64,000 nucleotides of DNA. Source: an uncultured Victivallales bacterium. Its GTDB lineage: Bacteria > Verrucomicrobiota > Kiritimatiellia > UBA8416 > CAYOBW01. The stretch is from contig CAZJYI010000021.1 of NCBI GenBank assembly GCA_964550025.1, positions 1 to 64,000 on the forward strand, in the 5' to 3' direction. The notes beneath the pieces were generated by a model. It searched no databases. It was given only the letters and a program-made list of their open reading frames with translations, and was not told where the DNA came from. Position numbers and translations under genes: made by a program. Position 1 is the stretch's first letter. Every line of letters starts with the position of its first letter. Shown here in pieces: positions 4,076 through 60,840 of this stretch.

Positions 4076-4217
4076 CGATCTACGCTGATGTGGTCCACGG
4101 CAGCCCGCCGGGACGTCCCGGTCAGGCATGCTGTTGCCGGAGAACTTGCCAAGTTTCGCGGCGGAATACAAGCATGGAGTGCGGGGTGGAAATGGCGGTC
4201 GGCGGCCCCTTCGCGCA

Positions 4218-4262
4218 TAGGTCCCATGGGTCCCATGGGTCCCATACGTCCCATACATCCCG
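4218..4262. repeat. Tandem 9-bp repeat (GGTCCCATG x3, then GGTCCCATA, CGTCCCATA) upstream of the c-di-GMP regulator
   Basis: Read directly: ggtcccatgggtcccatgggtcccatacgtcccatacatcc. A two-unit relative, ggtcccatccgtcccatc, lies at about 24726-24745. Confidence 0.6.
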
Positions 4263-17962: not shown

Positions 17963-17968
17963 GGAGAA

Positions 17969-17997
17969 GTGGCGAGTGGCGGGTGGCGAGTGGCGCC
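17969..17997. repeat. Heptamer tandem repeat (GTGGCGA/GTGGCGG x4) immediately 3' of the kinase stop
   Basis: Read directly: gtggcgagtggcgggtggcgagtggcgcc. Confidence 0.6.
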
Positions 17998-20403: not shown

Positions 20404-20633
20404 AGAGTAACGCTGAATGCTGAAGTGGGAGCGATCCCACTTCGGCATTCTCGTCTTCTGGGGACCTCTCTGTCGAAATGTAGCCACGAGCGTGAGCGAG
20501 TGGACGGGTGACGGGGTTGGTTCAGCGGCATGTCCACTCGCTCACGCTCGTGGCTACTCTCGGTGCTGAAAGTCTGACTTCAGCATTCATCATTCGATAT
20601 TCAACATTCAACATTCGACATTTCCCTCCTCCC
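20404..20633 (+). repeat. Palindromic repeat element, copy 1, with nested 26-bp perfect inverted repeat and a terminator-like hairpin
   Basis: Arms AACGCTGAATGCTGAAGTG ... CTTCAGCATTCA..ATTCAACATTCGACATTTCCC. Hairpin gaatgctgaagtggga(gcga)tcccacttcggcattc at ~20415-20450 just after the flotillin stop. Perfect inverted repeat GTAGCCACGAGCGTGAGCGAGTGGAC at 20481-20506 and 20532-20557. Confidence 0.6.
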
Positions 20634-21439: not shown

Positions 21440-21640
21440 GGGCGTAAATTCGAATCTCGAAATCTCCGCCGCTGGCGGAAAACAAATCCGAATCTCAAAA
21501 GGGGGGAAACATGGGAGAACGGGAAAGAAGACGCAGAATTCTCTCTCCGTTTCGGTCATTTGGGTTTTCAGATTTCGAATTTGTTTCGGATTTCGATATT
21601 CGGATTCCGGGTTTGTGCTACACACACCCCTCCGACCTAG
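21440..21640. repeat. AT-rich intergenic region with GATTTCGAA/AATCTCGAAATC-type short repeats
   Basis: aaattcgaatctcgaaatctcc ... cagatttcgaatttgtttcggatttcgatattcggattcc. Related to the AGATCTC/AGATTTC heptamer family at 31950 and 53139. Confidence 0.45.
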
Positions 21641-22250: not shown

Positions 22251-22320
22251 GTACGAGTACGGCCCGGAACCTGACGCGCGCATGGATACGACGCTGGTGG
22301 CGGGGGAAGGAGAAACCGCA

Positions 22321-22436
22321 GAATGATGAACGCTGAATGATGAATGCTGAAGTGCGAGACCTGTCTCCGTGCGTGCCCTTCCCCTCTCACTTCGACATTG
22401 AGCATTCAGCGTTCAATATTCGACATTTCCCCTCCC
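22321..22436 (+). repeat. Palindromic repeat element, copy 2
   Basis: GAACGCTGAATGATGAATGCTGAAGTG...CACTTCGACATTGAGCATTCAGCGTTCAATATTCGACATTTCCCCTCCCC. Same arms and tail as copy 1, direct orientation. Confidence 0.6.
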
Positions 22437-29130: not shown

Positions 29131-30642
29131 TTACGGCATTGCCATCCGCGCCACTTCCAGGCGGTCGGCCTGGGAGTGGTCGAGCTGAATGCGGGGACCG
29201 CGTTCGAGCTGCACGGTCCACGGGTCGCTCGCGGTGGCGCGCGTGAGGAGCGAGAAGACCACCCCCGCCTGGATTCCTTCGGGCCAGGGACCGGCGCAGC
29301 CGGAGAACCGGCCGCGGTCGCCCTCGCGCAGGAGGGAAAGCGTGAGGGAGGGCTGTTCGCCCGTGCCCGTCTCGCGTTCGCCGGGGACGGGCAGGCCGTG
29401 GACATCCGTGACCGGGTGGTCGAGCTCGTTGTCGAAGCGATCGAGAACGTCCCGCGGGTGCAGGTGCTCCAGCCTTTCCGCGGCGTCGTGTGCGCTCTTC
29501 TCGTCCATGCCGCTACGCACGAGATGCCCTTCCCAGAGCTGGTGTGCGCGCTCGATGTGCGCGGCTTCCTCGTGGCCTTTCGGTGTCAGCTTCAGCGTCT
29601 GGCTGCGTGCGTCGTGTGCGGCCAGCAGCTCGCGGGCAACCATGTGTCGCACGGCCTTGCGGATCCGGGCGGGGGGGAGGGGAACGTCCGAGAAGCGACC
29701 GCGGCCCTCGTAGACCGCTTTGAGGATGTCCTCGATGTCCGATTGCGGGACGAGGCGTCGTCGCCTCAGCCATCCGGCCAGTATGCCGTACCGCGGCGCG
29801 AGAGTCAGGCCGACCATGAACAGCAGGAATCCGACGAACATAATGGAGCCTCCGCCGGAAGCGTTGACCCACTCCGAGAAGTAGAGTCCCAGTACGACGG
29901 ACAGGATGCCCATGAGTGCTGCGATGACCATCATGCGGGGCAGGCGATCCGTCAGCATGTAGGCCAGCGCCGCCGGCGTGATCAGCAGACCGACGATCAT
30001 GATGACGCCCACCATGGATATGCCGGCGACACATACCAGGGCGATCATGACCGTCAGCAGGATATGGATGAAACGGGTGGGCAACCCGATCGACGCCGCC
30101 ATGGTCGGGTCGAAGCTGACGATCGTGAAATGGCGGTAGAAGACGATGATCGCACCGAGAACCAGCGAGGCGACGACCGCGCTGAGCCACATGTCCGGCC
30201 AGGAGACGCCATAGATGTCGCCCTGGAAGAAGTGGTTGAGATCGATGTTGATGTGCTGCTGGAAACGGGTGAGAATCACGACCCCCGCGGCGAAGAGACC
30301 GGTGTAGATAATACCGATCGCCGTGTCTTCGGCGATGCGCCCGATATTGCTCAGGAAACTGATGCAGACAGAGGTGAGCAGGGCCGCGATCAGCGCGCCG
30401 AGCAGCAGACCGCCGGCCGTGAAACCGCCTGCGAACACGGCATTCATGACGAGATAGCCTATCCCAACCCCGGGCAACAGCGCGTGGCTCATCGCGTCGC
30501 CTATGAATGCCATCTTCCGCAGAATGATGTAGCAGCCCAGAACGGCGCAGGCGACGGCGATCGTGGACCCGCCCAGTGCCCCTTTCACGAAGTAGGCGTG
30601 TGTCCACGGTTCGGCAAACGTGTTGTACAGCCATTCCGTCAT
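29131..30642 (-). CDS. Metal ABC transporter permease (ZnuB/MntB/TroC family) fused to a DtxR/MntR-family metalloregulator and a FeoA/SH3-like domain (YtgCR-like)
   Basis: About 290 aa of permease with 8-9 TM helices. Then DIEDILKAVYEGRG...ARIRKAVRHMVARELL (winged HTH), a metal-binding/dimerisation region, and C-terminal LTLSLLREGDRGRFSG...VVFSL (FeoA-like). Confidence 0.8.
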   Translation of the reverse strand: MTEWLYNTFAEPWTHAYFVKGALGGSTIAVACAVLGCYIILRKMAFIGDAMSHALLPGVGIGYLVMNAVFAGGFTAGGLLLGALIAALLTSVCISFLSNIGRIAEDTAIGIIYTGLFAAGVVILTRFQQHINIDLNHFFQGDIYGVSWPDMWLSAVVASLVLGAIIVFYRHFTIVSFDPTMAASIGLPTRFIHILLTVMIALVCVAGISMVGVIMIVGLLITPAALAYMLTDRLPRMMVIAALMGILSVVLGLYFSEWVNASGGGSIMFVGFLLFMVGLTLAPRYGILAGWLRRRRLVPQSDIEDILKAVYEGRGRFSDVPLPPARIRKAVRHMVARELLAAHDARSQTLKLTPKGHEEAAHIERAHQLWEGHLVRSGMDEKSAHDAAERLEHLHPRDVLDRFDNELDHPVTDVHGLPVPGERETGTGEQPSLTLSLLREGDRGRFSGCAGPWPEGIQAGVVFSLLTRATASDPWTVQLERGPRIQLDHSQADRLEVARMAMP

Positions 30643-31403
30643 TGCGCCCTGTTCCCCCGGCTCCAGCTAAGATGACGCAGCTTGCCCCCGTACACCTCGG
30701 TGAGGAGACTCTCCTGCAAAACATCGCGGGGTTCCCCGTATGCGAAGACGCGGCGATTGAGGATGACGACACGATCAAAGAACTCCGCGGCGGTCTCCAG
30801 GTCGTGGTGAACAACGATGACCGTCTTGCCCTGTTCGCGTGCACCCGACAGAAGGCCGGCGATGGCGCGCTCGGTGGCCGCGTCGACACCGGCGAAGGGT
30901 TCATCGAGAAGGAGGATGTCGGACTCCTGCGCCAGGGCGCGCGCCATGAAGACGCGCTGCTGCTGCCCTCCGCTGAGCTGTCCGATCTGCCGGTCGCGGA
31001 GCTCGAGCATGCGCACGTCGTTCAGCGCCCGGCGCGCGACCTCGTGGTCGGCGCGACGCACCGGCTGGTACCAGCGGATGTGCCCATAGCGTCCCATGAG
31101 CACGACGTCCCAGACCGTGACCGGGAAGTTCCAGTCGATTTGCCCGCGTTGCGGGACATAGGCAACGCGGCCCCGCGCGTGTTCCACCTCTTCTCCAAAG
31201 AGCCGCACGGTGCCGTAGTCGCGATCCACGAACCCCATGATCGACTTGATGACGGTGGATTTGCCCGCGCCGTTGGGACCGAGGATGCCGACCACGGATC
31301 CGCGGGGGATGTCCAGGGACACGTCGATCAGCACGGGCTTGGTCTGGTAGGACACGGTCAGGTGCTCGATGGTCACGGCTGAAGTGACGTCACTCATGGC
31401 CAT
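30639..31403 (-). CDS. znuC: Metal ABC transporter ATP-binding protein (ZnuC/MntA/TroB family)
   Basis: Start MAMSDVTSAV by codon arithmetic. GPNGAGKST, LSGGQQQRV, LLLDEPFAGVD. Confidence 0.85.
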   Translation of the reverse strand: MAMSDVTSAVTIEHLTVSYQTKPVLIDVSLDIPRGSVVGILGPNGAGKSTVIKSIMGFVDRDYGTVRLFGEEVEHARGRVAYVPQRGQIDWNFPVTVWDVVLMGRYGHIRWYQPVRRADHEVARRALNDVRMLELRDRQIGQLSGGQQQRVFMARALAQESDILLLDEPFAGVDAATERAIAGLLSGAREQGKTVIVVHHDLETAAEFFDRVVILNRRVFAYGEPRDVLQESLLTEVYGGKLRHLSWSRGNRAQ

Positions 31404-31941
31404 CTTCCCGCTGTAGACCGCGGTCGAGCTTGCCGAGACGGGGCTGCAGCGAAAGCTCGACGGTGGCCGAGAGGTTGTGTCCGTCTCCGGGAGACCAGAT
31501 CGTCCGGTCCGCGCAGAGAGCCTTGTCCCGCAGAAGCTCGATGCGTAGCGGGACAGGGCGGCGCGCGTCCTCCGCCGATGGCGTGGCTTCGACGTGAAGC
31601 TCGACGGAGTTGCCCGTGAATGACAGGTTCGTGACGGTGAGCGGCATGCCTCGTCGCACGTCCTCTTTCCATTCCAGGATGGCCTCCCCGCCGTGGCGTA
31701 CAACAATGCGCGGCGCATCGGATGCGGGGCCGGCAGCGAGGGCGAACGGGTCCCGGATCGCATCAAAGACCGGAGTGAGGCGCAACGTGCATGCGGCGGT
31801 CTCGGTGTGCTCGACGGGATCGTGGTGCGCGTGGACTTCCCGGGAAAGCGAAACCTCGATGGAGCGGGTCATCAGAAACTGGCACACTCCGACGCTGCCG
31901 AGCATCAGGATGGAAACAGCGATGGCGTAGACGAAGCGCAT
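31390..31941 (-). CDS. Small membrane-anchored hypothetical protein inside the metal-uptake operon
   Basis: 183 aa. N-terminal anchor MRFVYAIAVSILMLGSVGV. No recognisable motifs. Overlaps the znuC start by ~14 nt. Confidence 0.45.
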   Translation of the reverse strand: MRFVYAIAVSILMLGSVGVCQFLMTRSIEVSLSREVHAHHDPVEHTETAACTLRLTPVFDAIRDPFALAAGPASDAPRIVVRHGGEAILEWKEDVRRGMPLTVTNLSFTGNSVELHVEATPSAEDARRPVPLRIELLRDKALCADRTIWSPGDGHNLSATVELSLQPRLGKLDRGLQREDGHE

Positions 31942-31949
31942 GGCGGAGA

Positions 31950-32127
31950 GTCTCAGATTGCGAATCTCAGATCTCAGATCTCAAATCTCAAATCTCAGAT
32001 TTCAGATCTCAGATTTCAGACCTCAGATTTCAGACCTCGGACCTCAGATTTCGGGTCTCACATTTTACATCCCAGATGTTGCGTACGGGAAATGGTGGCG
32101 GATCTGAGATCTGAGATTTGAGATATG
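31950..32127. repeat. Heptamer microsatellite (TCTCAGA/TTTCAGA/TCTCAAA) of ~16 tandem units plus a 4-unit inverted copy
   Basis: Read directly: tctcagattgcgaatctcagatctcagatctcaaatctcaaatctcagatttcagatctcagatttcagacctcagatttcag... Then cggatctgagatctgagatttgagat at ~32100-32127. Confidence 0.75.
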
Positions 32128-32144
32128 TGATCCCGGATCCCCCA

Positions 32145-33068
32145 TCACTCGCCCCTCAGTGCCTCCACAACGGTCAGCGTGTTCTCGCGCATCATGCCGA
32201 GGTACGTTTCGCCGGCGCTTCCGTCCTCACCCATGGCGTCGGAGTACAGTTCGCCGCCGATCTTGACGCCCGCTTCCCCCGCGATCTGGCGGATCATCTT
32301 GGGGTTGACGGAGGTTTCCACGAAAATGGCGGGTACATTGAAATCCTTGATGGACGCGACCACCGTGCGCCGTCTCTGCGGCGTCATCCCCCCGCCGATC
32401 TCCGAACCGGTCGACCAGCCGACGGGGCTGCGCACTTTGAAACCGTAGCGGGCGGCAAAGTAGTTGAATGCGTCGTGGCTTGTGACGAGCACACGTTTCG
32501 CCTTGGGAATCGTGCTGACCTGCTTCTCGATCCAGGCGTCGAGGGCGCGGAGCTGTTGCAGGTAGAGGTCGGCGCGGGCCTGGTACGAGGCGGCCCCCTC
32601 CGCGTCAATCTTCATCAGCGCGCCCAGAATGTTGTTTACGTAGAGCGCGGCGTTGCGCGGATCAAACCATGCATGCGGGTCCTTGACCATCTGCCCTTCG
32701 TACTGGAGGTCCAACGGCTGAATCCCGTCCGTGCAGGTCACCAGGGGCTTGTTGCCGTTGTCCTTCGCCAGCGAAGCCATCCAGTTCTTACCTTCGAGAT
32801 GCAATCCGTTCTGAAGACAAAGGTCCGCCGTCTCCACGAGACGGCTGTCTCCCGGCACGGGCTGGTAGACGTGAGGGTTCACGCCCGCCCCCAGGATGCA
32901 GATAACCTCGCAACGGTCTCCTGCTACCTGCCGCGCCAGGTCGGCGGTCTGGGTTGTCGAGCAGACAACGCGCGGTTTCCTGGTCGCTTCTGCGGCGCCT
33001 GCTTCCGTCGCACAGAGGAGTGCGAGGGCCGCTGCCAGACCCGTGAACAGTATCCTGCTACCTGTCAT
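32145..33068 (-). CDS. znuA: Metal ABC transporter substrate-binding protein (ZnuA/TroA/MntC, cluster A-I)
   Basis: Start MTGSRILFTGLAAALALLCATEA (signal peptide). HVYQPVPGD, VTSHDAFNYF, metal-ligand His/Asp positions. Confidence 0.85.
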   Translation of the reverse strand: MTGSRILFTGLAAALALLCATEAGAAEATRKPRVVCSTTQTADLARQVAGDRCEVICILGAGVNPHVYQPVPGDSRLVETADLCLQNGLHLEGKNWMASLAKDNGNKPLVTCTDGIQPLDLQYEGQMVKDPHAWFDPRNAALYVNNILGALMKIDAEGAASYQARADLYLQQLRALDAWIEKQVSTIPKAKRVLVTSHDAFNYFAARYGFKVRSPVGWSTGSEIGGGMTPQRRRTVVASIKDFNVPAIFVETSVNPKMIRQIAGEAGVKIGGELYSDAMGEDGSAGETYLGMMRENTLTVVEALRGE

Positions 33069-33210
33069 CGAACCGTTCCTCCTGCTGATCCCACTCGCTC
33101 TACTCCTCTGCGCCATACTACGGACCTGCCACTGGACGCGGAAGCAAAAAACGGCGGAACACGGTTTTTCAATTGAAGCGTGCCGTGCCAATCCGTACAG
33201 TCACGCCACT

Positions 33211-34569
33211 ATGAGTCTCCCCGAGATTATCACCACGGTCGACAAGTTCATCTGGGGGCCGCCCCTCATGATCCTCCTGGTGGGGACCGGTCTCTTTCTC
33301 ACGATCCGCCTGAAGGTCGTCCAATTCAGGGGGTTCCGCCATGCCCTGGCCGTCCTGCGCGGTACGTACGATTCCGAGGGGGACGTGGGGGAAATCAGCC
33401 ATTTTCAGGCGCTGTCCGCGGCGCTCTCGGCGACCATCGGCACGGGCAATATCGTGGGCGTGGCAGCAGCGATTCTGCTGGGCGGGCCGGGCGCTGCCTT
33501 CTGGATGTGGGTGACGGCACTGGTCGGCATGGCCACGAAGTTCGCCTCCTGCACGCTGGCCGTCCACTACCGGCGTATCGACTCCAGCGGTGAAGCGCAC
33601 GGCGGGCCCATGCATTTCATCGAGCTCGGCATGGGCAAACGCTTCAAATGGTTGGCCGTTCTCTTCGCCGTCTTCACCGTCACGGCCAGCTTCGGTATCG
33701 GCAACATGTTCCAGGTCAACAACTGCGTTGTCAGCCTGAGCGTCCTGTTTGGCGGCAGTTCCGAGCCCTCGCGCATGTTCGGGTTAATAGCCGGCGTGAT
33801 TGTCGCGGCCCTCGTTGCTGCCGTTATCCTGGGGGGCATCAAGCGCATCGGCCGCTTTGCCTCGGCACTGGTCCCCTTCATGTGCGCCGTCTATATCCTC
33901 GGCGGGCTCTACATCCTCCTGCGCAACGCAACCGCCATTCCCGGCGCTTTCCGCGAGATCTTCTTCCACGCGTTCCACAAGCCCGAGGCGTTGGCCGGCG
34001 GTCTTCTGGGCACGGTGGTCCGGCAGGGCGTGGCGCGCGGTCTCTTTTCGAACGAGGCCGGCCTCGGATCGGCCGCCATGGCATTCGGGGCGGCCCGTAC
34101 AAAGGAACCGGTTCGCGAGGGACTCGTCTCCATGCTGGGGCCCTTTATCGACACCATTGTCATCTGTTCCATCACGGCCCTGGCGATCGTCATCACCGGC
34201 GCGCACGAAGTCTGCAGCGTTAAGGGCGAGCTGACGGGCAAAGCGTTCGAGCTGGGGTGGGGATCGCGCTACGGCGGGTTGGTGGTGGCGCTCGGCGTGG
34301 TTCTCTTCTCGTTCTCCACGTTGATCTCCTGGTCCTACTACGGGGATCGCGCCGCCGACTACCTCTTCGGTCACCGAGCGGTCTTGCCCTACCGCCTGGT
34401 GTACATCGGGTTCATCGTGGTGGGGGCCGTGGTCAGCATCGGGACGATCATCGACTTCTGTGACGCCATGAACGGGTTGATGGCCGTGCCGAACCTCATC
34501 GCACTGATCGCGCTTTCGCCCCTGCTGGTGAAGCTGACGCGCGATTACTTCTCACGAATGAAGCCGTGA
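33211..34569 (+). CDS. Alanine/glycine:cation symporter (AGCS family)
   Basis: Start MSLPEIITT at residue 106 of the track ORF. FQALSAALSATIGTGNIVGVAAAI signature. Confidence 0.85.
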   Translation: MSLPEIITTVDKFIWGPPLMILLVGTGLFLTIRLKVVQFRGFRHALAVLRGTYDSEGDVGEISHFQALSAALSATIGTGNIVGVAAAILLGGPGAAFWMWVTALVGMATKFASCTLAVHYRRIDSSGEAHGGPMHFIELGMGKRFKWLAVLFAVFTVTASFGIGNMFQVNNCVVSLSVLFGGSSEPSRMFGLIAGVIVAALVAAVILGGIKRIGRFASALVPFMCAVYILGGLYILLRNATAIPGAFREIFFHAFHKPEALAGGLLGTVVRQGVARGLFSNEAGLGSAAMAFGAARTKEPVREGLVSMLGPFIDTIVICSITALAIVITGAHEVCSVKGELTGKAFELGWGSRYGGLVVALGVVLFSFSTLISWSYYGDRAADYLFGHRAVLPYRLVYIGFIVVGAVVSIGTIIDFCDAMNGLMAVPNLIALIALSPLLVKLTRDYFSRMKP

Positions 34570-41986: not shown

Positions 41987-42030
41987 GCGAGTCGCGAGTC
42001 GCGAGTCGCGCGTCGGGCGTCGCGCGTCGG
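41987..42030. repeat. Short tandem heptamer repeat (CGAGTCG x3, then CGCGTCGGG x2)
   Basis: tgcgagtcgcgagtcgcgagtcgcgcgtcgggcgtcgcgcgtcggg. A related GAGTCGC/TAGTCGC triplet lies at ~7490-7515. Confidence 0.55.
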
Positions 42031-44528: not shown

Positions 44529-44603
44529 CACACACTCTCCCGTACCGATTGCCGGTCGCTGATAACCGATCACTGATCACTGATGACTGATCACTCCTCT
44601 TCA

Positions 44604-46540: not shown

Positions 46541-47365
46541 TCATCGTACCAACATCAGAACCCCGGCAGCCATGATCACGGCGATCACGGCGGCCTGCAG
46601 TTTTCGTTCGGGGAGCTTCGCGGAGAGCTTGCTGCCCCAATACACGCCGACCGTCGACCCCAGCCACATGGTGATGGCCGTGGCAATATCGACTTCGCCG
46701 CCTCTCCCGTAGATCAGAACCGTTACGAGCGGGAGAATTACACCGATAAACAGCGATGTGCCGACCGCGTGGGCGGTCGGCATCCCGACGAGAATGATGA
46801 GCAGCGGCATCATCACCACGGCTCCGCCGATGGACGTGGAGCCGACCAGAGCCCCCACGAGGATGCCGACACCCGCCGTGATGGCGCGTTTCACTCCTGA
46901 GCGTCCGGCGACCCATCGCGCGATGCGGCCCTGGTGGTCGGTGGCGCGGGCTTTTCCGACCAGGTTGATGATCAGCAGCACGACGGAGAGGAGTATGACG
47001 GCGCCGATGAAGACCTTGAGCCCCGACTGGAACGCCTGCGCGGCTTCCGGACAGCCCGCCACCGATGCCGTGCGGCGATTGATGAGTAGCGACACCAGCA
47101 CGTTGGTGGGCACGGCCGTGGCCAGGAACAGGGCGGATGTCCGGAAATCGACGTTTCCCAACCGGTAGTGCCGATATGACGCAAAGACCTTTGTCAGCAG
47201 GGCGTAGAGGCACGTCGTCCCGACGGCCGTGGATGGCGGCATGCCGAGGACGAGCGTGGCGGAGGGGACCACGAGCACGTTGCCGACCGCGGTCATTCCC
47301 ATGCAAAAGCCGATCGCCAGGCCGATGCCCAAGCGCAACATGAGCCCTACGCTGTCGAAGTCCAT
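46541..47365 (-). CDS. Sulfite exporter TauE/SafE (DUF81) family membrane protein
   Basis: 274 aa, 7-8 TM. Duplicated GxGGG-type motifs. Confidence 0.8.
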   Translation of the reverse strand: MDFDSVGLMLRLGIGLAIGFCMGMTAVGNVLVVPSATLVLGMPPSTAVGTTCLYALLTKVFASYRHYRLGNVDFRTSALFLATAVPTNVLVSLLINRRTASVAGCPEAAQAFQSGLKVFIGAVILLSVVLLIINLVGKARATDHQGRIARWVAGRSGVKRAITAGVGILVGALVGSTSIGGAVVMMPLLIILVGMPTAHAVGTSLFIGVILPLVTVLIYGRGGEVDIATAITMWLGSTVGVYWGSKLSAKLPERKLQAAVIAVIMAAGVLMLVR

Positions 47366-47507
47366 TATGCCATTCCCTGCTCTTTTCTATAGTAAAGAGG
47401 GCGGAGCATACCGTTCCCGGTAGCTCGGCGAAAGCCAAAAAAGGCGCGACGCGGCGGTCAATGCAGAATCGTTCCCACCCGCAATCTCTCCCCCAAATCT
47501 CCCCCCC

Positions 47508-47878
47508 GAGCGGGAGGAGTGGGATTATGATTGGGGAGGGGAATGGGAATTCTCCCCGATCGTAATCGCACTCTCTCGCGCCCTGATCGCCTCGGCGTGG
47601 TCTCTTGGGACGATTGGTGAGGGGGAGGAGTGGGATTATGATTGGGGAGGGGAATGGGAATCCTCCCCGATCGTAATCGCACTCTCTCGCGCCCTGATCG
47701 CCTCGGCGTGGTCCTCTGGGGACGATTGGTGAGGGGGAGGAGTGGGATTATGATTGGGGAGGGGAATGGCAGTTTTCCCCGATCGTAATCGCACTCTCTC
47801 GCGCCCTGATCGCCTCGGCGTGGTCTCTTGGGACGATTGGTGAGCGGGAGGAGTGGGATTCTGATTGGGGAGGGGAAC
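47508..47878. repeat. Tandem repeat, ~111-bp unit x ~3.3 copies (periods 111, 113, 110)
   Basis: Unit GGGAGGAGTGGGATTATGATTGGGGAGGGGAATGGGAATTCTCCCCGATCGTAATCGCACTCTCTCGCGCCCTGATCGCCTCGGCGTGGTCTCTTGGGACGATTGGTGAG. Contains an internal hairpin GGGGAG...CTCCCC. No spacers. The track ORFs inside it are short and interrupted. Confidence 0.8.
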
Positions 47879-47886
47879 CGCGGCGG

Positions 47887-49557
47887 TCAGTACGTGAACA
47901 TGCTTCCGCCGATATACTCGCGCAGGATGGAGGACGACGGTACGAGCTCAAACGGTGCTCCGAGAAAATTGAGAAGGAACTCCGTCAGGCGACGCGACTC
48001 GGCATACTCGGGGTCGGAGGGCTTGATCTGCATGAGTAGAGGTTCCACCAGGGGCTTGAGTATTGCGAGCTCATAGTCCAGGGCAGAGTTGAACGTGGCG
48101 TCCGCTCCGCGCTGGAACGGGAAGATCCACCGCTTCTCCCCTCGCCGCACGGAGGGCCAGCGGCGCAGGGTCTCCAGCGCAGAATGCCCGCGGTACTTGT
48201 GATCGCGAACCATGCGACGCATCAGACGGTTGTCCGTCGTCGAAATCCGGTTGTTGAAATCGACGCTGAGCTGCGTCAGAGCGTTGATGTAAACCTTGAA
48301 CTTGCGGTGTGCGGGCACCATCTCGGTCAGGCGCGGATTCAGACCGTGGATGCCTTCGATGATGACGACGTGGTTGTTGTCAATCTTCAGCGTGTGTCCG
48401 TGGTACTCGCGTGATTTTGTCTCGAAATTGAAGTGGGGCAGTTCGACCTGGCGGCCGTTGATGAGCTTGACCATGTCCGCGTTGAAGAGCTCGAGGTCGA
48501 CGGCCTCCACGTGTTCGAAGTCGAGCTCGCCGCTTTCGTCGCGCGGCGTCTGTTTGGGGCCCACGAAGTAGTTGTCGGTCGCGACCGTCACCGGCTGTAT
48601 GCCGTTGACGCGCAGGTGGTTGGTCAACTTCTTGGCGAACGTCGTCTTTCCCGCGGAGGAGGGGCCGGCCATGAGGATCATCCTGAGGTCACCGCGGCGG
48701 GACGCAATCTGATCGGCAATCTGGGCGCACTTCTTCTCGTGCAGCGCTTCGGCGATCATAATGAACTGCTGGAGACCGTGGTCGGCGATGATCTCGTTCA
48801 GACGCCCGACGGTGTTGACTCCCAGGATGCGCCCCCAGTGCTTGTGTTCCTGGAAGATGTGAAAGAGATGCGGCTGATCGACGAAGTCGGGTATGTCGAG
48901 CCGTTCGTTGCGTTCCGGGACCTGCAGGACGAGCCCCGGCGGGTAGTGGAGCAGCTTGAAGCGGTTGAGAACGCCCGTTGAGGGGACCAGCGGGCCGTGG
49001 GCCAGGTCCGAGAACCCGTCGCACCAATGCAGCACGACGCGGGGGGGATTGCGGTGCCTCAGCAGGTTCAGTTTCTGAAGTTGACCGGACTCCTCGAACT
49101 CACGCACGGCGGCGGTGTAGGCGATCTTGCGGCGTTCGATGGCGACGTCCCGGGTGACGGTCGCCCGCATCTGCCTGTCAACGCTGGCCAGTTCGCGGGC
49201 GCTGATGCCTGCCGTCGAGTCGTCGCCGCGGGTGAATGTGCAGTACAGGCCCTGGCCGAACGAATGCTCGATCGTAAAGTGCGCGTCGGGATACAGCTCG
49301 TGCACCGTCTTGGCCAGCAGAAAGGAGAGCGAGCGCCGGTAGATTCTCCAGCCGTGGGGGTCGGCGGCCGTGAGGAATCCCACCTTGCTATCCACGGTCA
49401 ACGGGTAGGACAGGGAGGCCGCGTCGTTGTTGACCAGCGCGGCAATGTACGGCAGGCCCGACTCGGCCAGTCGCGACTGCAGCAACGAACACACAGCCGT
49501 CCCGACGTCGCATTCCAGCGACCGACCGTCCTCAAATGTCACGGAAATCCGGTTCAT
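47887..49557 (-). CDS. TGS-domain (ThrRS N-terminal-like) + uridine kinase/PRK-family nucleoside kinase
   Basis: N-terminal TGS-like ISVTFEDGRSLECDVGT. Kinase P-loop GPSSAGKTTFAKKL. Confidence 0.7.
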   Translation of the reverse strand: MNRISVTFEDGRSLECDVGTAVCSLLQSRLAESGLPYIAALVNNDAASLSYPLTVDSKVGFLTAADPHGWRIYRRSLSFLLAKTVHELYPDAHFTIEHSFGQGLYCTFTRGDDSTAGISARELASVDRQMRATVTRDVAIERRKIAYTAAVREFEESGQLQKLNLLRHRNPPRVVLHWCDGFSDLAHGPLVPSTGVLNRFKLLHYPPGLVLQVPERNERLDIPDFVDQPHLFHIFQEHKHWGRILGVNTVGRLNEIIADHGLQQFIMIAEALHEKKCAQIADQIASRRGDLRMILMAGPSSAGKTTFAKKLTNHLRVNGIQPVTVATDNYFVGPKQTPRDESGELDFEHVEAVDLELFNADMVKLINGRQVELPHFNFETKSREYHGHTLKIDNNHVVIIEGIHGLNPRLTEMVPAHRKFKVYINALTQLSVDFNNRISTTDNRLMRRMVRDHKYRGHSALETLRRWPSVRRGEKRWIFPFQRGADATFNSALDYELAILKPLVEPLLMQIKPSDPEYAESRRLTEFLLNFLGAPFELVPSSSILREYIGGSMFTY

Positions 49558-49603
49558 GATGAGGGGACGATAACAGAGCAGGGCCGTCCGGGACAAGCTG
49601 CGG

Positions 49604-50746
49604 TTACGCGACGACCATCAATTCCCGTATCACGGAATCCGCCACCTCTCTCCCGCGGCGCGTGAGGCGCCAGTGCCCTTTCCCTGTCTCAACCAGGCCC
49701 TCTTGTGCCATGCGACGCAGTGAGGCCAGCCACTCGTCCGCGACGGGTAACGCGACGATCCGCGGTTCCGGAATGCCCTCCGTGAGGCGCAGGGCAAATG
49801 CGAGTCGCTCCACGGCATCCGTCGGTGCATCCAGCGTTTCTTCCTCGCGCGGCGGTGCCGCGCCGGTGGAAAGCGCGTGCACATAGGAAGACAGGTCGCC
49901 AAGGTTGGTCCACCTTCGGCGTCCCTTCCTCGACGCGGCCGCCGGCCCGATCCCAAGGTAGTCGCGGCCCTGCCAATAGCCCATATTGTGGCGACAGCGT
50001 CCCCCCGCCGGTGCGTAGTTGGAAATCTCATAGCGCTCGAAGCAGGCTGCGGACAGCGTCTCCTCCGCCGTCTCCAAGGCCTGCAACTGATCGTCTTCGC
50101 CGGGAAGCAAGAGGTCGCCCGCTTCGACGGCCGCGGCGAGGCGCGTGCCGTTCTCGACGGAAAGTGCATAAACCGAGACGTGCGTCGGCCGTAGCGCGAG
50201 AGTTCGCTCCAGGGTCGCAATCCACGCGTCCTGCCCGCACCCCGGCAGCCCGGCGATCAGGTCCAACGCGATGTCCGTGAAACCGGCCGCGCGACTGTCG
50301 CGCACGGCGCCCGCCAGTTCAAGCGTGTCGTGGCCGCGCCCCAGCGCTGCCAAGGCCGTGTCCGTCATGGCCTGCGCCCCGAGACTGACGCGGGTTATGC
50401 CATGGTTTCGCAGCAGGTCCAGCTTTTCACGTGTAGCCGTGGCGGGATTGCACTCAACCGTCCACTCCTCTACCCCGCGCGCGTCGACATGCTCGTGCAC
50501 GCAGGCGAACAGGCGCCGCAGTTGCGAGCGGCTCAACACGGAAGGTGTTCCGCCGCCGACGTAGACCGTAGTGGGCCGGGCCGCGAGCCCCGCCTTTGTG
50601 CACAGGTCCATTTCCGCATCGAGCGCCTCCAGGAATGCGTCCGCGGCTTCCGGCACGTAGCGTTCGGAATAGAAGGCACAGTACGAGCACTTCCCGCTGC
50701 AGAAAGGGATATGGATGTAGAGGTGGCGACAGCCGCTATCGATCAT
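49604..50746 (-). CDS. hemW: Radical SAM heme chaperone HemW / HemN-like
   Basis: LYIHIPFCSGKCSYCAF CxxxCxxC motif. Likely start MIDSGCRH. An upstream in-frame MTGSSTETQ lies within element C. Confidence 0.85.
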   Translation of the reverse strand: MIDSGCRHLYIHIPFCSGKCSYCAFYSERYVPEAADAFLEALDAEMDLCTKAGLAARPTTVYVGGGTPSVLSRSQLRRLFACVHEHVDARGVEEWTVECNPATATREKLDLLRNHGITRVSLGAQAMTDTALAALGRGHDTLELAGAVRDSRAAGFTDIALDLIAGLPGCGQDAWIATLERTLALRPTHVSVYALSVENGTRLAAAVEAGDLLLPGEDDQLQALETAEETLSAACFERYEISNYAPAGGRCRHNMGYWQGRDYLGIGPAAASRKGRRRWTNLGDLSSYVHALSTGAAPPREEETLDAPTDAVERLAFALRLTEGIPEPRIVALPVADEWLASLRRMAQEGLVETGKGHWRLTRRGREVADSVIRELMVVA

Positions 50747-50874: not shown

Positions 50875-52077
50875 TGGTTTCATGAAGAGGAGCAACGCGG
50901 CCATGCCGAGGAACAGCAATCCCGTCAGGCACTTGGCGACGGCGACCTCGCGGCGACTCCAGGTCAGGAGCTCCTGCAGCGTCAGGCCGGTGTACGAGAG
51001 CCCCACGACGGCAACGAGCGGCAGGATGAACATCGCGTTGTACAGGGCGAGGCATGCCAGGACACGCGCCCCGGCGTGGCCCGCCTTAACGACAAGGACC
51101 AGCGTTGGCACGTAGACCTGCCCCGTGCACACGCTCTCCAGGGCCGTGACGATCGCGCCCGCCGCCAGCGCACCCACCAGCGCGTAACGCGCGTTCATTC
51201 CGTCACGTATCGTGCGCTTGATCCTGCGCTTGAGTCCATCCGGCAGGCGAAGGGTCACTTCCTCCTCGCGGTGGCTGCGATGGTAGCGCCACGCGTCGCG
51301 GAAGGAGAGGGCGGCAAGTACCAGGAGAAGGGCAAGGAGGGTTATCTCGAATACGCGTTGCAGCGCACCGAAACCCTCCAGCGAGTGGAACGCGTGCAGC
51401 AGACCGAAGCCGATCGCGGTGTAGGTTGCGAACGACGCTGCGCAGAATGCCAGCCCGTTGGCCAGCATCCGCCGTCGACCGACCTTGAGGACGCCAAGGA
51501 CGCTGACCAGGAACACCAGCGTTGAAATGGCGCACGGGTTGATCCCGTCGACGAGCCCCGCCCCCGCCACGCCCAGCCATGTGAAGCGCCTGATGCGCTC
51601 CTCGAGGAGCTGTTCGTCGGAGAGCCTGGCCCTGGACGTGTCACCCGTCGGTGCCCGCGGCGCGGTTCCGGGGTTCAGTCTCTCTCCAACACGCCTGTCC
51701 ACCTGTTCCAGGACCCCGTCGCGAATGGCCGGCCACCCCGCGAAGGGATGGGTCCCGTCCACGAACATGATGACGGATTTGCTGACGTTGAACTGCAGTT
51801 TCTCCTGGAGCCGCACGAGCGCCAGGTAGTTCGTCTTCACCCGGGTGTCGTAGCGATTCAGGGCGTAGAAGCCCTCGTAGCGTTCCCGCAACGGGATGAT
51901 GACCTGCTGTTCGACTTTCGTGCACGCGGGACAGCCGGGCTCGTAGAAGTAGTCAACCTGAACAGGGACGATCTCAGCGTGCTCGGGGGCGGTGTTGGTT
52001 GCGGCGACACCATCCGCGGCGCACCACAGCCCCAGGAGGACTGCTGCCGATCGCACGAGTGGTGTCGGTATCCTCAC
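50872..52077 (-). CDS. Thioredoxin-like domain fused to DsbD/CcdA-type transmembrane domain
   Basis: Signal peptide. YFYEPGCPACTKVEQ thioredoxin CxxC. GINPCAISTLVFLVSVL and CTGQVYVPTL DsbD_2 cysteines. Confidence 0.7.
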   Translation of the reverse strand: MRIPTPLVRSAAVLLGLWCAADGVAATNTAPEHAEIVPVQVDYFYEPGCPACTKVEQQVIIPLRERYEGFYALNRYDTRVKTNYLALVRLQEKLQFNVSKSVIMFVDGTHPFAGWPAIRDGVLEQVDRRVGERLNPGTAPRAPTGDTSRARLSDEQLLEERIRRFTWLGVAGAGLVDGINPCAISTLVFLVSVLGVLKVGRRRMLANGLAFCAASFATYTAIGFGLLHAFHSLEGFGALQRVFEITLLALLLVLAALSFRDAWRYHRSHREEEVTLRLPDGLKRRIKRTIRDGMNARYALVGALAAGAIVTALESVCTGQVYVPTLVLVVKAGHAGARVLACLALYNAMFILPLVAVVGLSYTGLTLQELLTWSRREVAVAKCLTGLLFLGMAALLLFMKP

Positions 52078-52124
52078 ACCGATAACCGATCACTGATAAC
52101 TGATGACTGATCACTGATGACTGA

Positions 52125-53120
52125 CTACCGGCTCCTGACCGTACGTCCGCTGTTCGCGCTTTCCCGGATCATGTCCATGAGTTTCGCGAATCGCAGGCCG
52201 ACTTCGGCGGGGCAGGGGTTGTCCAGGCGTCCCTCGCGCACCTTGACGAACTGTTCCCATACACCGCGCGATCGGGCGTATTTGACAGCGTGAAACTCCG
52301 GGTCCCCATCGGTCTTGATGAGGAGGCGCTCTCCCCATATCCCGGTTTCGAGGACCCCCTTGTCGCCAAAGATGTGGACCGTCGAAGCGCACTGGATGGA
52401 ATCCCCCGCGCCAGCCATGGAGAAGAGAACGCCGTTGCGGAAGCGCCCGCTCACCGATGATGCGATCTCGACCGGTGTGCTGCGGTTGTCGAACATGCCG
52501 GTGACCTCGACAACGTCCTCGCCGACAAGGTCGACGACAGTGTTGATCATGTGGGACCCGGTATCGAACAGAAAGCCGCCTCCCGAGAGTTCGGGGTCCT
52601 GCCGCCATGTCCCGGTGGTGGCTTGTTTCCAGCGCTGGTGCGCGTGGGCCGACACGCAGGTCACCTTGCCGATCGTTCCTTTGGCGATGAGCTCCTTTGC
52701 CTTTTGAACCGCGGGGGAGAGGCTGCCCGGGAAGGCGACGACCAGAAGCCGTTCCGCCTTGTCGCGGGCCTTGATGAGGCGGCGCGCTTCCGATGCATTC
52801 ACCACCATCGGCTTCTCCAGGCAGATGTCCATGCCGTGTTTCAGGCAGTCGCGCGCGTTCTCGTAGTGGAACTTGTGGGGTGTACAGATCAGGGCCGCCT
52901 CCGGACTCTCAACGGCCTTCACCAGGTCCTTGACCGAATCGAAGAACGGCGGGCAGCGGCGGCCCTGCTCCACGAACATCTCCACGACGGCCTCCCGGGA
53001 CCGCTCGGAAACCTCAACGAAACCGACGATATCCGTGGTGCGGCGTTGCAGGAGCATGGTGCGGATGTGGTGCCGCGCCATGCCGCCCGTGCCGACGACG
53101 ATGGTTCTGATGCGGGGCAT
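52125..53120 (-). CDS. Gfo/Idh/MocA family oxidoreductase
   Basis: IVVGTGGMARHH Rossmann N-terminus. EKP motif ICLEKPMV. Confidence 0.85.
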   Translation of the reverse strand: MPRIRTIVVGTGGMARHHIRTMLLQRRTTDIVGFVEVSERSREAVVEMFVEQGRRCPPFFDSVKDLVKAVESPEAALICTPHKFHYENARDCLKHGMDICLEKPMVVNASEARRLIKARDKAERLLVVAFPGSLSPAVQKAKELIAKGTIGKVTCVSAHAHQRWKQATTGTWRQDPELSGGGFLFDTGSHMINTVVDLVGEDVVEVTGMFDNRSTPVEIASSVSGRFRNGVLFSMAGAGDSIQCASTVHIFGDKGVLETGIWGERLLIKTDGDPEFHAVKYARSRGVWEQFVKVREGRLDNPCPAEVGLRFAKLMDMIRESANSGRTVRSR

Positions 53121-53138
53121 GTTCTTGCTCCTTGTGCC

Positions 53139-53244
53139 AATTCCAAATCCCAGATCTCAGATTTCAGATTTGGGATCTCAGAGACCAAAGGCCAGAGACC
53201 AGTATGTCCAAGTTCTCCCTCTGAAATCTGAGATCTGAAATCTG
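53139..53244. repeat. AGATCTC/AGATTTC heptamer-type inverted repeat element
   Basis: aaatcccagatctcagatttcagatttgggatctcagagacc ... ctgaaatctgagatctgaaatctg. Confidence 0.6.
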
Positions 53245-53260
53245 CCATTCGCCCTCTTCC

Positions 53261-53303
53261 CCACGCAAAGAGGGCGCTCGCCCGGCGAGCGCCCTCCGCG
53301 TGG
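53261..53303 (-). terminator. GC-rich perfect 27-nt palindrome 3' of the aldolase gene
   Basis: ccacgcaaaGAGGGCGCTCGCCCGGCGAGCGCCCTCcgcgtgg. Confidence 0.5.
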
Positions 53304-53318
53304 AAACCGGGCGATTGA

Positions 53319-60582: not shown

Positions 60583-60840
60583 GTGTTTGTTCCTCTTCAA
60601 TGTCCCCACCGGCCTTGTGCCGGTGGAACGAAAGACCGATATACAGCGGTAATACCGCCGGGCATCCTGAGCCCGGATGGAGCAAGAGACGAGTGAAATC
60701 TCTCTTTGCTCCTGGCGGGCTCCATGACTCCTGTGAGTTTGTGTTGTCGGCTGTTCGCGTTGTCTGTCGCCGGCTGGAAGCCGGCACCACTCGCCACCGG
60801 CTGGAAGCCGGCGCTACTTGTCACCGGCTGGAAGCCGGCG

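Follow-up and report, generated by a model that had tools for sequence, protein, structure and literature searches.

A degenerate heptanucleotide repeat array between two cistrons of a metal ABC importer operon in an uncultured marine PVC-group bacterium

The importer operon and its intercistronic repeat

The array studied here lies in a metal ABC importer operon on the minus strand of the window, that is, of the whole 64-kb stretch of DNA that was analysed. Read on the minus strand, the order is a ZnuA-family gene, a spacer, a gene for a 183-aa protein, an ABC ATPase gene, and a gene for an ABC-3 permease that carries a fused DtxR C-terminal domain. Gene calls and domain matches agree here with an earlier sequence-only reading, which had placed the repeat in a metal-uptake operon between znuA and a small gene followed by the ATPase and the permease-DtxR fusion. 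The upstream cistron (32145..33068, minus strand) encodes a cluster A-I metal ABC substrate-binding protein (PF01297 ZnuA, E 6e-80). The downstream cistron, the 183-aa gene (31390..31941, minus strand), encodes an N-terminal hydrophobic helix; the ATPase gene (30639..31403, minus strand) overlaps it by 14 nt and is in turn overlapped by 4 nt by the gene for the permease fused to the DtxR/MntR-like domain (29131..30642, minus strand; PF00950 plus PF02742). The 'znu' names first given to these genes are nominal: the binding protein and permease match AztC/AztB and MntC best, and the ATPase MntA, with all of these matches under the equivalog cut-offs. The permease-DtxR fusion is of the YtgC-YtgR type (PMC5599777), and its DtxR-like part covers residues of about 285-503.

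The 183-aa protein has no match in Pfam or NCBIfam, an alignment-based metagenome scan for its relatives found none, and its AlphaFold model is of low confidence (mean pLDDT 48.7). In relatives, too, its gene immediately follows that of the binding protein; it has no Shine-Dalgarno-like sequence, in contrast to the neighbouring genes, which have one. Gene calls on ten contigs all leave a spacer of 203 nt between this gene and the ZnuA-family gene (31942..32144, minus strand), which is presumably transcribed within the operon mRNA. The array lies within the operon, 924 nt past the start codon of the binding-protein gene. When 31300-33400 was scanned for promoter and terminator consensus sequences, the spacer showed neither, and it also lacks a sigma-70-like hexamer pair. 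No Rfam family was found in the whole window at gathering thresholds, and a permissive Rfam search of the spacer returned sub-threshold microRNA-precursor look-alikes only, which reflect the spacer's hairpin shape.

The main array (31951..32077; repeat features carry no strand) consists of 18 in-register units as judged by Tandem Repeats Finder (TRF), a unit table and a pattern scan. Five of the 18 are exact copies of TCTCAGA and the others are mostly 1-2 bases off it (TCTCAGA/TTTCAGA/TCTCAAA/CCTCAGA and so on); the number of degenerate units comes to about 14-18. TRF reports period 7 at 31964-32060 (13.9 copies, 78% matches, consensus ATCTCAG, array score 110-114) and period 14 at 31951-32049 (7.1 copies, 83%); the array scores at period 21 too, its higher-order period is 14 nt, and its longest perfect run at a 7-nt period is 19 nt. 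The 16 copies counted at first sight are thus a fair figure for so degenerate an array. The contrast in base composition that had been pointed out also stands, with about 42% GC in the array, although the window has 63.9% GC and not the ~68% then given. On the mRNA strand the main array reads (UCUGAGA)n, and the AUG of the 183-aa gene follows 9 nt past the final unit (10 nt from unit end to AUG start).

A non-repeat centre (32078..32100), identified from sequence and fold as the hairpin loop region, separates the main array from an inverted block of 4.6 TCTGAGA units (32101..32132), found both by TRF, as 4.6 copies of GATCTGA, and as inverted-repeat arms; two more degenerate units extend this block to 32146. 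The inverted four-unit copy described earlier is therefore real, and there are many registers in which it pairs with the array; between them, array and inverted block take up the 203-nt gap. The TCTCAGA unit is a near-palindrome (TCT-C-AGA), and the inverted block differs from the array at the central base only. The arms formed between array and inverted block are 24-45 nt long and 80-92% complementary, the best being one of 39 nt (85%) and one of 24 nt (92%), and the fold energy is -83.9 kcal/mol (z -2.8). Scanning the window for three consecutive TYTSARA units with at most 2 mismatches gave 18 matches against 0.01 expected from shuffles, all of them confined to two loci, 31951-32130 and 53141-53247.

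The placement is non-coding: the array sits inside the gap between called genes, and the flanking Pfam domains end outside it. The plus strand is open in all three frames and would give SQISDLR heptads; antisense coding was rejected since the open frames follow trivially from a unit without stop codons, a period of 7 is not divisible by 3 and species differ in the array. Restriction-site avoidance or a decoy function was likewise rejected, as the window contains AGATCT, TGATCA, TTCGAA, TCGCGA and GATC as often as expected; the palindrome had been called rich in AGATCT, which amounts to 4 sites.

The array across assemblies and related species

We compared the consensus sequences of ten contigs, which are independent metagenome assemblies from ten samples; their source metagenomes are JGI 3300007510/11, 3300009314/20 and 3300013118-20, and ENA ERZ23498639/58/68. 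Nine contigs span the spacer and are base-identical across it, as is the tenth over the part it covers, and since these contigs were assembled independently, the array is no assembly artefact. Overall the ten contigs are 99.97-100% identical and so sample one clonal population. The tenth contig (L008) terminates within the array, at window position 32063; where it breaks off could reflect assembly ambiguity in the array.

These data bear on the proposal that slipped-strand mispairing makes the array a contingency locus, at which slippage shifts the unit number often and switches the downstream transporter genes. Such a locus would be a tandem repeat upstream of a start codon, as is the case here, and the termination of L008 inside the array can be counted in its favour as well. 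However, the units are imperfect, with 78% matches and no perfect tract beyond 19 nt, and the spacer is the same in every assembly as far as each covers it. Nor does the spacer hold a promoter whose spacing could shift, and a 7-nt change in a 203-nt untranslated gap would have no obvious on/off effect. With neither a perfect tract, nor unit heterogeneity at the consensus level, nor a placement that affects frame or promoter, we give phase variation hardly any credence.

Comparison of the orthologous site places the array in a narrow lineage. In ten PVC relatives with 72-82% ZnuA identity the gene order is the same, the junction measures 0-30 nt and there is no array; in several of them the junction is an ATGA or GTGA overlap. 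A sister species (67% small-protein identity), in which the permease-DtxR fusion is confirmed, has a gap of 98 nt that contains about 5 units of the array's family; these units abut the ATG, the last one lying 7 nt before the start codon, there is no inverted arm, and the spacer folds no better than shuffles (z -1.2). For a species with 76% small-protein identity, whose small protein P0002 is encoded on a contig of JGI 3300072015, the comparison covers gap length only, which is 148 nt. Copy number thus differs by species, from 203 nt (about 18+5 units) through 98 nt (about 5 units) to 0-30 nt (none), and we regard the heptamer array as lineage-specific. What looked like an 85-nt spacer in a sister-species contig (L093) proved to be a stretch of N that marks a scaffold gap, and was discarded as a length variant. 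Upstream of the binding-protein gene, blocks are conserved between the two closest species.

Known operators of DtxR, MntR and TroR are 19-21 bp long, and the heptamer unit is not known to resemble them. The suggestion that the array is an operator for the permease-fused DtxR-like domain, acting in YtgR-like autoregulation, draws on the presence of such a domain in the operon, on a unit that is palindromic like the sites bound by dimers, and on Chlamydia, where the cleaved YtgR-type domain represses its own operon (PMC5599777). The comparative data speak against it: the ten relatives possess the operon and the fusion type and lack the array, so that site and regulator do not co-occur. The array is located in the operon rather than at a promoter upstream of the binding-protein gene, it is a 7-nt odd palindrome and not an interrupted promoter palindrome of operator length, a second array of the same family precedes an oxidoreductase gene, and the unit is widespread in unrelated contigs (see below). 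An operator role is accordingly extremely unlikely.

Heptamer arrays elsewhere in the window and in metagenomes

Heptamer arrays are common in this stretch of genome, which contains at least nine of them in intergenic positions. Period 7 is dominant in the window (5 strong segments versus 0-1 for periods 5-12), 15 of its 53 TRF arrays are of the period-7 type, and its 15 arrays of period 7, 14 or 21 in 64 kb compare with 68 in 1.27 Mb of the relatives' loci. All nine strong low-GC arrays sit between co-directional genes of unrelated functions.

The closest counterpart is a sister element (53141..53247) with the same TCTCAGA unit family and layout, located between a DeoC-like gene and the Gfo/Idh/MocA oxidoreductase gene that it precedes. 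It had been anticipated as a related block at 53139-53244, and it is the one further TCTCAGA locus that the proposed search for other such arrays yields within the 64-kb window. About 6 TCTCAGA-type units (53141-53182), a 37-nt centre and about 4 inverted units (53220-53247) make up an RNA hairpin of -58.4 kcal/mol (z -5.6). On the mRNA, both TCTCAGA loci have the short UCUCAGA arm 5' and the long UCUGAGA arm 3'. Beyond the units, the sister element has no similarity to the znuA spacer, and the two share no common core or termini.

The remaining arrays are built from other units. TRF finds a CTGATCA array of 5.3 copies that fills the fhs-folD junction (44559..44595), a CACTGAT array of 6.9 copies directly after the Gfo/Idh/MocA gene (52077..52124), and intergenic arrays of GCGAGTC (6.1 copies, 41987..42029), TTCAACA (6.3 copies, 20579..20622) and AGTGGCG (4 copies, 17968..17995). 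A GAATGAT-type array (22317..22420) has an inverted partner at 22398-22420 and forms a hairpin (z -4.1). At 21440..21614, where a looser relative of the TCTCAGA blocks had been suspected over 21440-21640, TRF reveals two inverted blocks (21440-21490 and 21558-21614); the inverted-array layout is indeed similar, but the units are ATTTCGA-like, and the first 150 nt fold no better than shuffles (z -0.35).

This inventory bears on the view that the array is a non-autonomous mobile element, either a MITE or a REPIN-like hairpin, inserted into the gap. Two loci in 64 kb with the same unit and inverted-arm layout would suit such an element. On the other side stand the missing shared core and termini, the lack of target-site duplications, and the different units of the other arrays; the shorter array at the same position in the sister species fits growth in place. 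We consider insertion very improbable. The proposal of a dispersed REP-like element fares somewhat better, in that heptamer arrays are dispersed over at least nine gaps and several form hairpins, but their units differ between loci with no shared consensus. The stem-loop palindrome of REP, BIME or REPIN elements is present, and a shared dispersed consensus is not, the unit being confined to two loci in 64 kb. The heptamer arrays here are a class of simple repeats and no single mobile or consensus element.

Two features of this class are over-represented. Near-palindromic units make up 3 of 6 unit families, versus 10% of random heptamers and 4 of 29 arrays in relatives, and the inverted-pair layout is seen in about 4 of 9 window arrays versus 11 of 126 metagenome rows of the TCTCAGA unit family. 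Both excesses could stem from selection for hairpins or from a mutational mechanism that hairpins drive. When viral contigs were scanned for exact 3-unit matches, with near-palindromic units set against composition-matched ones, the counts of 2, 0 and 0 were too low to compare.

Could the hairpin be functional? An intercistronic RNA hairpin of REP/BIME type would shield the upstream mRNA against 3' exonucleases, or it would reduce how much is translated from the membrane and ATPase cistrons downstream, and the periplasmic binding protein would consequently be overproduced. The array lies exactly between the binding-protein gene and the remaining ABC importer genes, for which REP elements in ABC-importer operons set a precedent; its stem-loop is long (z -2.8, as above), and the two other heptamer hairpins of the window fall far below shuffles. 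Moreover, the 183-aa gene is without the Shine-Dalgarno-like sequence of its neighbours, and since the downstream cistrons overlap, they depend on initiation at this gene. Yet the hairpin is not conserved: the sister species has units and no inverted arm, with no significant fold, the more distant relatives have no spacer at all, and window arrays lacking an inverted partner fold non-significantly (z +0.2 and -1.7). We therefore see a regulatory hairpin as unlikely, if not negligibly so.

In metagenomes the TCTCAGA unit family (at least 4 units) is present in at least 120 unrelated contigs, whose GC content ranges over 19-71% and whose arrays reach 26 units. Relative to the flanking genes its orientation is unbiased, 14 versus 16 in 30 co-directional cases. 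This distribution is relevant to the idea that the units are mRNA or DNA sites for a lineage-specific nucleic-acid-binding protein acting on downstream translation initiation, for which the TAACTGA repeats of Beggiatoaceae provide a precedent as a proposal (PMC4679880). Sense units close to a start codon occur in the znuA spacer, 9 nt from the AUG, and in the sister species, at 7 nt, and the sense orientation recurs in the sister element and in two long metagenome arrays (L167 and L200). The even split of orientations in metagenomes argues against such a protein, as do the other arrays of the window, whose units differ and which are mostly separated by 30-150 nt from the start codon that follows. 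Binding sites of this kind are in our judgement improbable.

A likely origin by slippage, and known heptamer repeats

Taken together, sequence comparison suggests that the array is probably a heptanucleotide long simple-sequence repeat (LSSR) that grew by slippage and then decayed, and neither a switch nor an operator; the fallback named in the sequence-only reading, a neutral simple-sequence expansion, comes nearest to the evidence. The array shows what marks an LSSR: head-to-tail copies of a unit within the 5-11 nt range and in excess of chance, a non-coding site, an excess of period 7 in the window and a copy number that differs between species. A short TCTGAGA-like seed upstream of the 183-aa gene may already have been present in the common ancestor of this lineage and the sister species. 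Replication slippage, partly in 14-nt double units, would have extended it to about 18 units, point mutation would then have degraded these, and strand or template switching inside the quasi-palindrome plausibly made the inverted block. The process would draw on a propensity for 7-nt slippage in this genome, and in bacteria generally, and on tolerance of an insertion in the gap between two cistrons. We infer slippage itself from sequence comparison, and the contigs sample one clonal population. As a by-product, the operon would have acquired a long multi-register mRNA stem-loop and a 203-nt spacer where relatives have a junction of 0-30 nt that often overlaps, and translation of the downstream cistrons would thereby be uncoupled from that of the binding-protein cistron. 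The occurrence of the array at one spot in two or three species, and the common arm order of both TCTCAGA loci, could point to function instead of tolerance.

The main value of this account is a correction: a striking repeat beside a metal regulator would be a widespread 7-nt intergenic repeat and not a switch or operator. It extends the heptamer repeat class to an uncultured marine PVC-group bacterium, and it offers a dated growth series at one orthologous site, from no units through about 5 units and a 148-nt gap to about 18+5 units. It also suggests that such arrays can wedge open junctions which, in relatives, are tight and probably coupled in translation. A testable clue comes from the over-represented near-palindromic units and inverted pairs: hairpins may drive heptamer expansion or be selected in it. 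More speculatively, and with rather little confidence, inverted near-palindromic heptamer pairs of this Kiritimatiellia-like lineage might be a class of intercistronic RNA hairpins, comparable to REP elements in function and made in place by slippage and template switching; if so, the hairpin at the present locus would fix how much periplasmic binding protein is made relative to the membrane transporter components of a self-regulating metal importer of YtgCR type.

Among known systems, contingency simple-sequence repeats (Moraxella uspA2 AGAT, Haemophilus, Neisseria) resemble the array in being tandem repeats between a transcription start and a start codon; they differ in being perfect and in a unit number that varies and tunes expression, whereas the array is degenerate and invariant in assemblies. 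REP/BIME elements at malE-malF and hisJ-hisQ are, like the array, extragenic imperfect palindromes with a stem-loop after a binding-protein gene, and the REP precedent reportedly goes back to Newbury, Smith and Higgins in 1987. Unlike REP, which has a consensus of roughly 35 nt, hundreds of copies and RAYT transposases, the stem here is made of simple repeats. The STRR heptamers of heterocystous cyanobacteria form several families that are dispersed and non-coding; phylum, base composition and units differ from those of the present arrays, and STRR units are not near-palindromes. Calothrix is mentioned in PMC4692102.

The searchable literature yielded no heptamer repeats in Kiritimatiellia-like hosts and no record of the motif. 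Heptamers have been described as the most abundant class of long simple-sequence repeats and attributed to polymerase slippage (Mrazek 2007, as related in PMC4679880). The TAACTGA repeats reported in marine Beggiatoaceae, cyanobacteria and Bacteroidetes are also intergenic heptamers before unrelated genes (MacGregor 2015, PMC4679880). Many of them stop a few nt short of a start codon without a Shine-Dalgarno sequence (PMC4679880), a placement seen at the znuA-spacer array as well, and the CACTGAT/TAACTGAT array at 52077-52124 includes TAACTGA. TAACTGA repeats, however, mostly comprise 2-6 exact copies of a single unit and strongly favour the forward orientation, unlike the longer arrays of degenerate units found here, which belong to several unit families and show no orientation bias in the wider metagenome sample.

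The GGGAATC arrays of Xanthomonas and the GGGGAYT arrays of Nostoc occupy the same gene gaps in related species and vary in length (Rehm et al. 2015, PMC4692102). Their differences from the present arrays lie in the unit, which here is a near-palindrome that is not G-rich and makes a quadruplex impossible, and in the presence of several unrelated unit families in one genome, none of them dominant. In other respects the likeness is broad: both consist of heterogeneous tandem 7-nt units, 2-26 per array, with many arrays per genome that are nearly all intergenic, and some arrays form inverted pairs capable of a stem-loop (PMC4692102). One Nostoc array even separates pecE from pecF within the pec operon (PMC4692102), just as the array described here lies within the importer operon.

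Heptamer array within a metal-transport operon

The heptamer array that the sequence-only reading had described is real and correctly placed, spanning 31951-32132, as established by re-reading the sequence and with Tandem Repeats Finder (TRF). TRF reports a period of 7 over 31964-32060 (13.9 copies, 78% matches, consensus ATCTCAG), and the main array also scores at period 21 and at period 14 (31951-32049, 7.1 copies, 83%), the latter because TCTCAGA and TTTCAGA units alternate. Read in register from 31951, the main array comprises 18 units, five of which are exact TCTCAGA and the remainder mostly TTTCAGA, TCTCAAA or CCTCAGA. It is accompanied by an inverted period-7 block at 32101-32132 (GATCTGA, 4.6 copies), which differs from it solely at the central base because TCT-C-AGA is an odd palindrome. 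The two are complementary in many registers, the best arms being 39 nt at 85% and 24 nt at 92%, and the spacer that holds them contains four AGATCT sites. GC content is about 42% in the array region versus 63.9% in the window, the latter replacing an earlier estimate of ~68%. Allowing up to two mismatches, a degenerate pattern of three units matches 18 times in the window versus 0.01 expected from shuffles, and all 18 matches are confined to two loci, the 31942-32144 spacer and 53141-53247.

The spacer (203 nt, 31942-32144) lies in a minus-strand operon, between the genes for a ZnuA-family substrate-binding protein (32145-33068; PF01297, E 6e-80) and for a 183-aa protein with an N-terminal hydrophobic helix and without a family match (31390-31941). 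Next on the same strand come the genes for an ABC ATPase (30639-31403) and for an ABC-3 permease that carries a fused DtxR-type metal-binding and dimerisation domain (29131-30642), with overlaps of 14 nt (183-aa/ATPase) and 4 nt (ATPase/permease). NCBIfam places the transporter within the Mn/Zn/Fe cluster A-I importers; its closest partial hits are AztC and AztB (binding protein and permease) and MntA (ATPase), all below equivalog cut-offs, and 'znu' therefore serves as a label only. Besides its single hydrophobic helix, the 183-aa protein has a domain predicted to be beta-rich and a DPFA motif that is conserved. It matches nothing in Pfam or NCBIfam, only two further relatives occur among 5.8 billion clustered proteins, and its AlphaFold model (pLDDT 48.7) is too poor for use. 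Its gene directly follows the binding-protein gene of a metal ABC operon in PVC relatives (contigs L011-L022, L087 and L091), and a similar small gene also follows in a Planctomycetia MAG; the protein may be an undescribed accessory component of the operon.

The permease fusion has the arrangement of Chlamydia YtgC-YtgR, of which the C-terminal domain is cleaved off and then represses the ytg promoter (PMC5599777). The fusion is also present in the sister species, a relative whose small protein is 67% identical (L091-L096). The DtxR/MntR profile match starts at about profile position 44-63, so the completeness of the DNA-binding helix-turn-helix is uncertain. The proposal that the array is an operator for this domain is not supported, on several counts: the array is missing where the regulator occurs, its site is internal to the operon and not at the promoter, its sister copy at 53141-53247 stands before the gene of an oxidoreductase, and units of this family are widespread elsewhere. 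No sigma-70-like promoter or intrinsic-terminator-like site was found in the spacer. The region between the divergent genes for the binding protein and for a Na/Ala symporter is 33069-33210 in the window and 8839-8978 in L091. Judged by conservation between the two closest species, the blocks AGTGGCGTGACTGTACG, CAATTGAAAAACC, TTTTTTGCTTCCGCG and TAGTAT within 33069-33210 are better candidates than the heptamer array for the promoter and any metal-repressor operator.

The junction in the population and in relatives

The 183-aa protein is found, residue for residue identical, in 17 contigs. Ten of these, from ten different metagenome assemblies, were compared with the window and are 99.97-100% identical to it over 2.5-20.5 kb without gaps; they sample one nearly clonal population. 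The spacer is identical in the nine contigs that span it and in the portion covered by the tenth, which rules out an assembly artefact, and at the consensus level no spacer length variation is seen in the ten. The tenth contig, L008, ends inside the array at window position 32063, which could be a routine failure to assemble across a repeat or a hint of read-level heterogeneity. Slipped-strand phase variation, another of the roles suggested earlier, finds no support in a degenerate tract that lies where a change in unit number should have no effect and that is invariant, at the consensus level, in ten assemblies.

Scanning a genome collection with the binding protein yielded relatives at 72-82% identity, all MAGs labelled Kiritimatiellae, Victivallales, Lentisphaerae or Verrucomicrobia; from these labels we infer a PVC-group host, probably of the Kiritimatiellia. 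Wherever the junction is readable (L014 has a run of N here), the small gene begins 0-30 nt after the binding-protein gene, with ATGA or GTGA overlaps in several relatives, and none of these readable junctions carries a heptamer array. In the sister species the same operon has a gap of 98 nt, and about five units (TCTGAGA TTTGAAA CCTGAGA TTTGAGA) make up its final 35-40 nt, ending 7 nt before the ATG; this gap has no inverted arm. In a 76%-identity species the gap is 148 nt. The array thus arose in a narrow clade at an ancestrally tight junction. By comparison of the available sequences, its length differs between species and is greatest in the window's organism.

Heptamer arrays elsewhere in the window and in metagenomes

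Period 7 is over-represented in the window, with five strong segments, where periods 5, 6 and 8-12 have at most one each; 15 of 53 non-overlapping TRF arrays have a period of 7, 14 or 21. Besides the TCTCAGA array with its inverted block (31951-32132), TRF detects intergenic arrays of AGTGGCG (17968-17995), TTCAACA (20579-20622), ATTTCGA-like units with two inverted blocks (21440-21614), GAATGAT with an inverted block (22317-22420), GCGAGTC (41987-42029), CTGATCA between fhs and folD (44559-44595), CACTGAT (52077-52124) and ATCTCAG with an inverted block (53141-53247). Each strong low-GC array occupies a gap flanked by co-directional genes. These neighbours have unrelated functions, their products being a Gfo/Idh/MocA oxidoreductase, a DeoC-like aldolase, formate-tetrahydrofolate ligase, FolD, a PEMT-like methyltransferase, a RIO-like kinase and a Band 7 protein. 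The fhs-folD junction (44529-44603; fhs encodes the formate-tetrahydrofolate ligase) is almost wholly CTGATCA array and is a second case of an array within an apparent operon.

The element at 53141-53247 shares the unit family and layout of the main array: on the mRNA strand its 5' arm, of UCUCAGA type, is short and its 3' arm, of UCUGAGA type, is longer, with a unique centre between them. Aligned with the 31942-32144 spacer, it shows no similarity except in the units themselves. A perfect GC-rich hairpin at 53245-53318 (GAGGGCGCTCGCC...GGCGAGCGCCCTC), just 3' of the DeoC-like gene, adjoins this heptamer hairpin, so that a single gap holds two consecutive stem-loops. Three of the six unit families in the window are near-palindromic, a 6-bp palindrome plus one base (AGATCT+C, TGATCA+C, TCGCGA+G), a higher share than in random heptamers (10%) or in the arrays at the relatives' loci (4 of 29). 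This, together with the enrichment of inverted pairs, is the one aspect worth genome-wide attention.

Tandem repeats of other periods also occur. A 111-bp unit is repeated 3.3 times at 95% identity at 47508-47877, in the gap between minus-strand genes 46541-47386 and 47887-49617, and each unit contains a GGGGAG...CTCCCC inverted repeat. The repeats at 60765-60844 (27-bp unit, three copies, 84% matches) and 4216-4261 (9-bp unit, 4.4 copies) probably lie inside coding regions, their periods being multiples of three.

Public metagenome contigs were scanned for four consecutive TYTCARA units, and at least 120 carry such arrays, at 19 to 71% GC and with up to 26 units among the matches listed; 75 viral contigs have arrays of this type. 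Among the matches listed, 21 contigs mix at least two exact TCTCAGA units with TTTCAGA and TCTCAAA as the window does, an inverted partner lies no more than 300 nt away in 11 of 126 array rows, and the 30 arrays between co-directional long ORFs divide 14 to 16 by orientation. Two long metagenome arrays precede start codons and have the sense orientation seen in the window's spacer. Arrays of TCTCAGA, TTTCAGA and TCTCAAA are seen in mid- to high-GC contigs L167 (9156-9440), L200 (486-663) and L178 (2322-2436), with at least 25 units in the first two and about 16 in the third; L167 has further heptamer arrays nearby. Given this wide occurrence, the unit family is neither genome-specific nor tied to metal transporters.

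Folding, origin and precedents

On the mRNA strand, 31930-32156 is predicted to fold at -83.9 kcal/mol (shuffles -69.8 ± 5.0; z -2.8), with the short arm paired to the array and a local hairpin near the start codon. The corresponding values are -58.4 kcal/mol (z -5.6) for the sister element (53125-53260), -47.6 (z -4.1) for 22300-22430 and -30.3 (z -1.2) for the sister species' spacer; the arrays without an inverted partner at 44529-44603 and 52061-52130 give -16.4 (z +0.2) and -18.8 (z -1.7). There was no Rfam family match. A Shine-Dalgarno-like sequence is present before the binding-protein gene and before the gene at 53120, and none was found before the small gene.

The suggestion of a dispersed REP-like element holds in so far as hairpin-forming repeats are spread over the window's intergenic gaps; what does not hold is a common element, the only consensus being that they are heptamer arrays. 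REP elements in malE-malF protect upstream mRNA, and the stem-loop may likewise protect the upstream segment. A tight, probably translationally coupled junction would have been replaced by 203 nt with a long stem-loop, so that the downstream cistrons should no longer be coupled to the binding-protein cistron and are probably translated less. That the array or hairpin has a selected regulatory role is unlikely, since the sister species lacks the hairpin and other relatives lack the entire spacer.

The array is in keeping with a class already described in the literature, heptanucleotide long simple-sequence repeats, and we therefore read it as an in-place slippage expansion. A seed older than the split from the sister species would have expanded by slippage and afterwards decayed through point mutation; the inverted block plausibly arose by template switching within the quasi-palindrome. 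Heptamers are the most abundant long simple-sequence class in many bacterial genomes according to Mrazek and colleagues, who ascribe this abundance to polymerase slippage (as reported in PMC4679880 and PMC4692102). In each of two Xanthomonas genomes, Rehm et al. describe about 185 arrays of GGGAATC with 2-26 units apiece; most are located between the same genes in both species and vary extensively in length and sequence, and some form inverted pairs. The same authors describe GGGGA(C/T)T arrays in Nostoc, one of them inside the pec operon (PMC4692102). The TAACTGA repeats of MacGregor end just before start codons that lack ribosome-binding sites (PMC4679880). The array is a further case of this already known kind of repeat.
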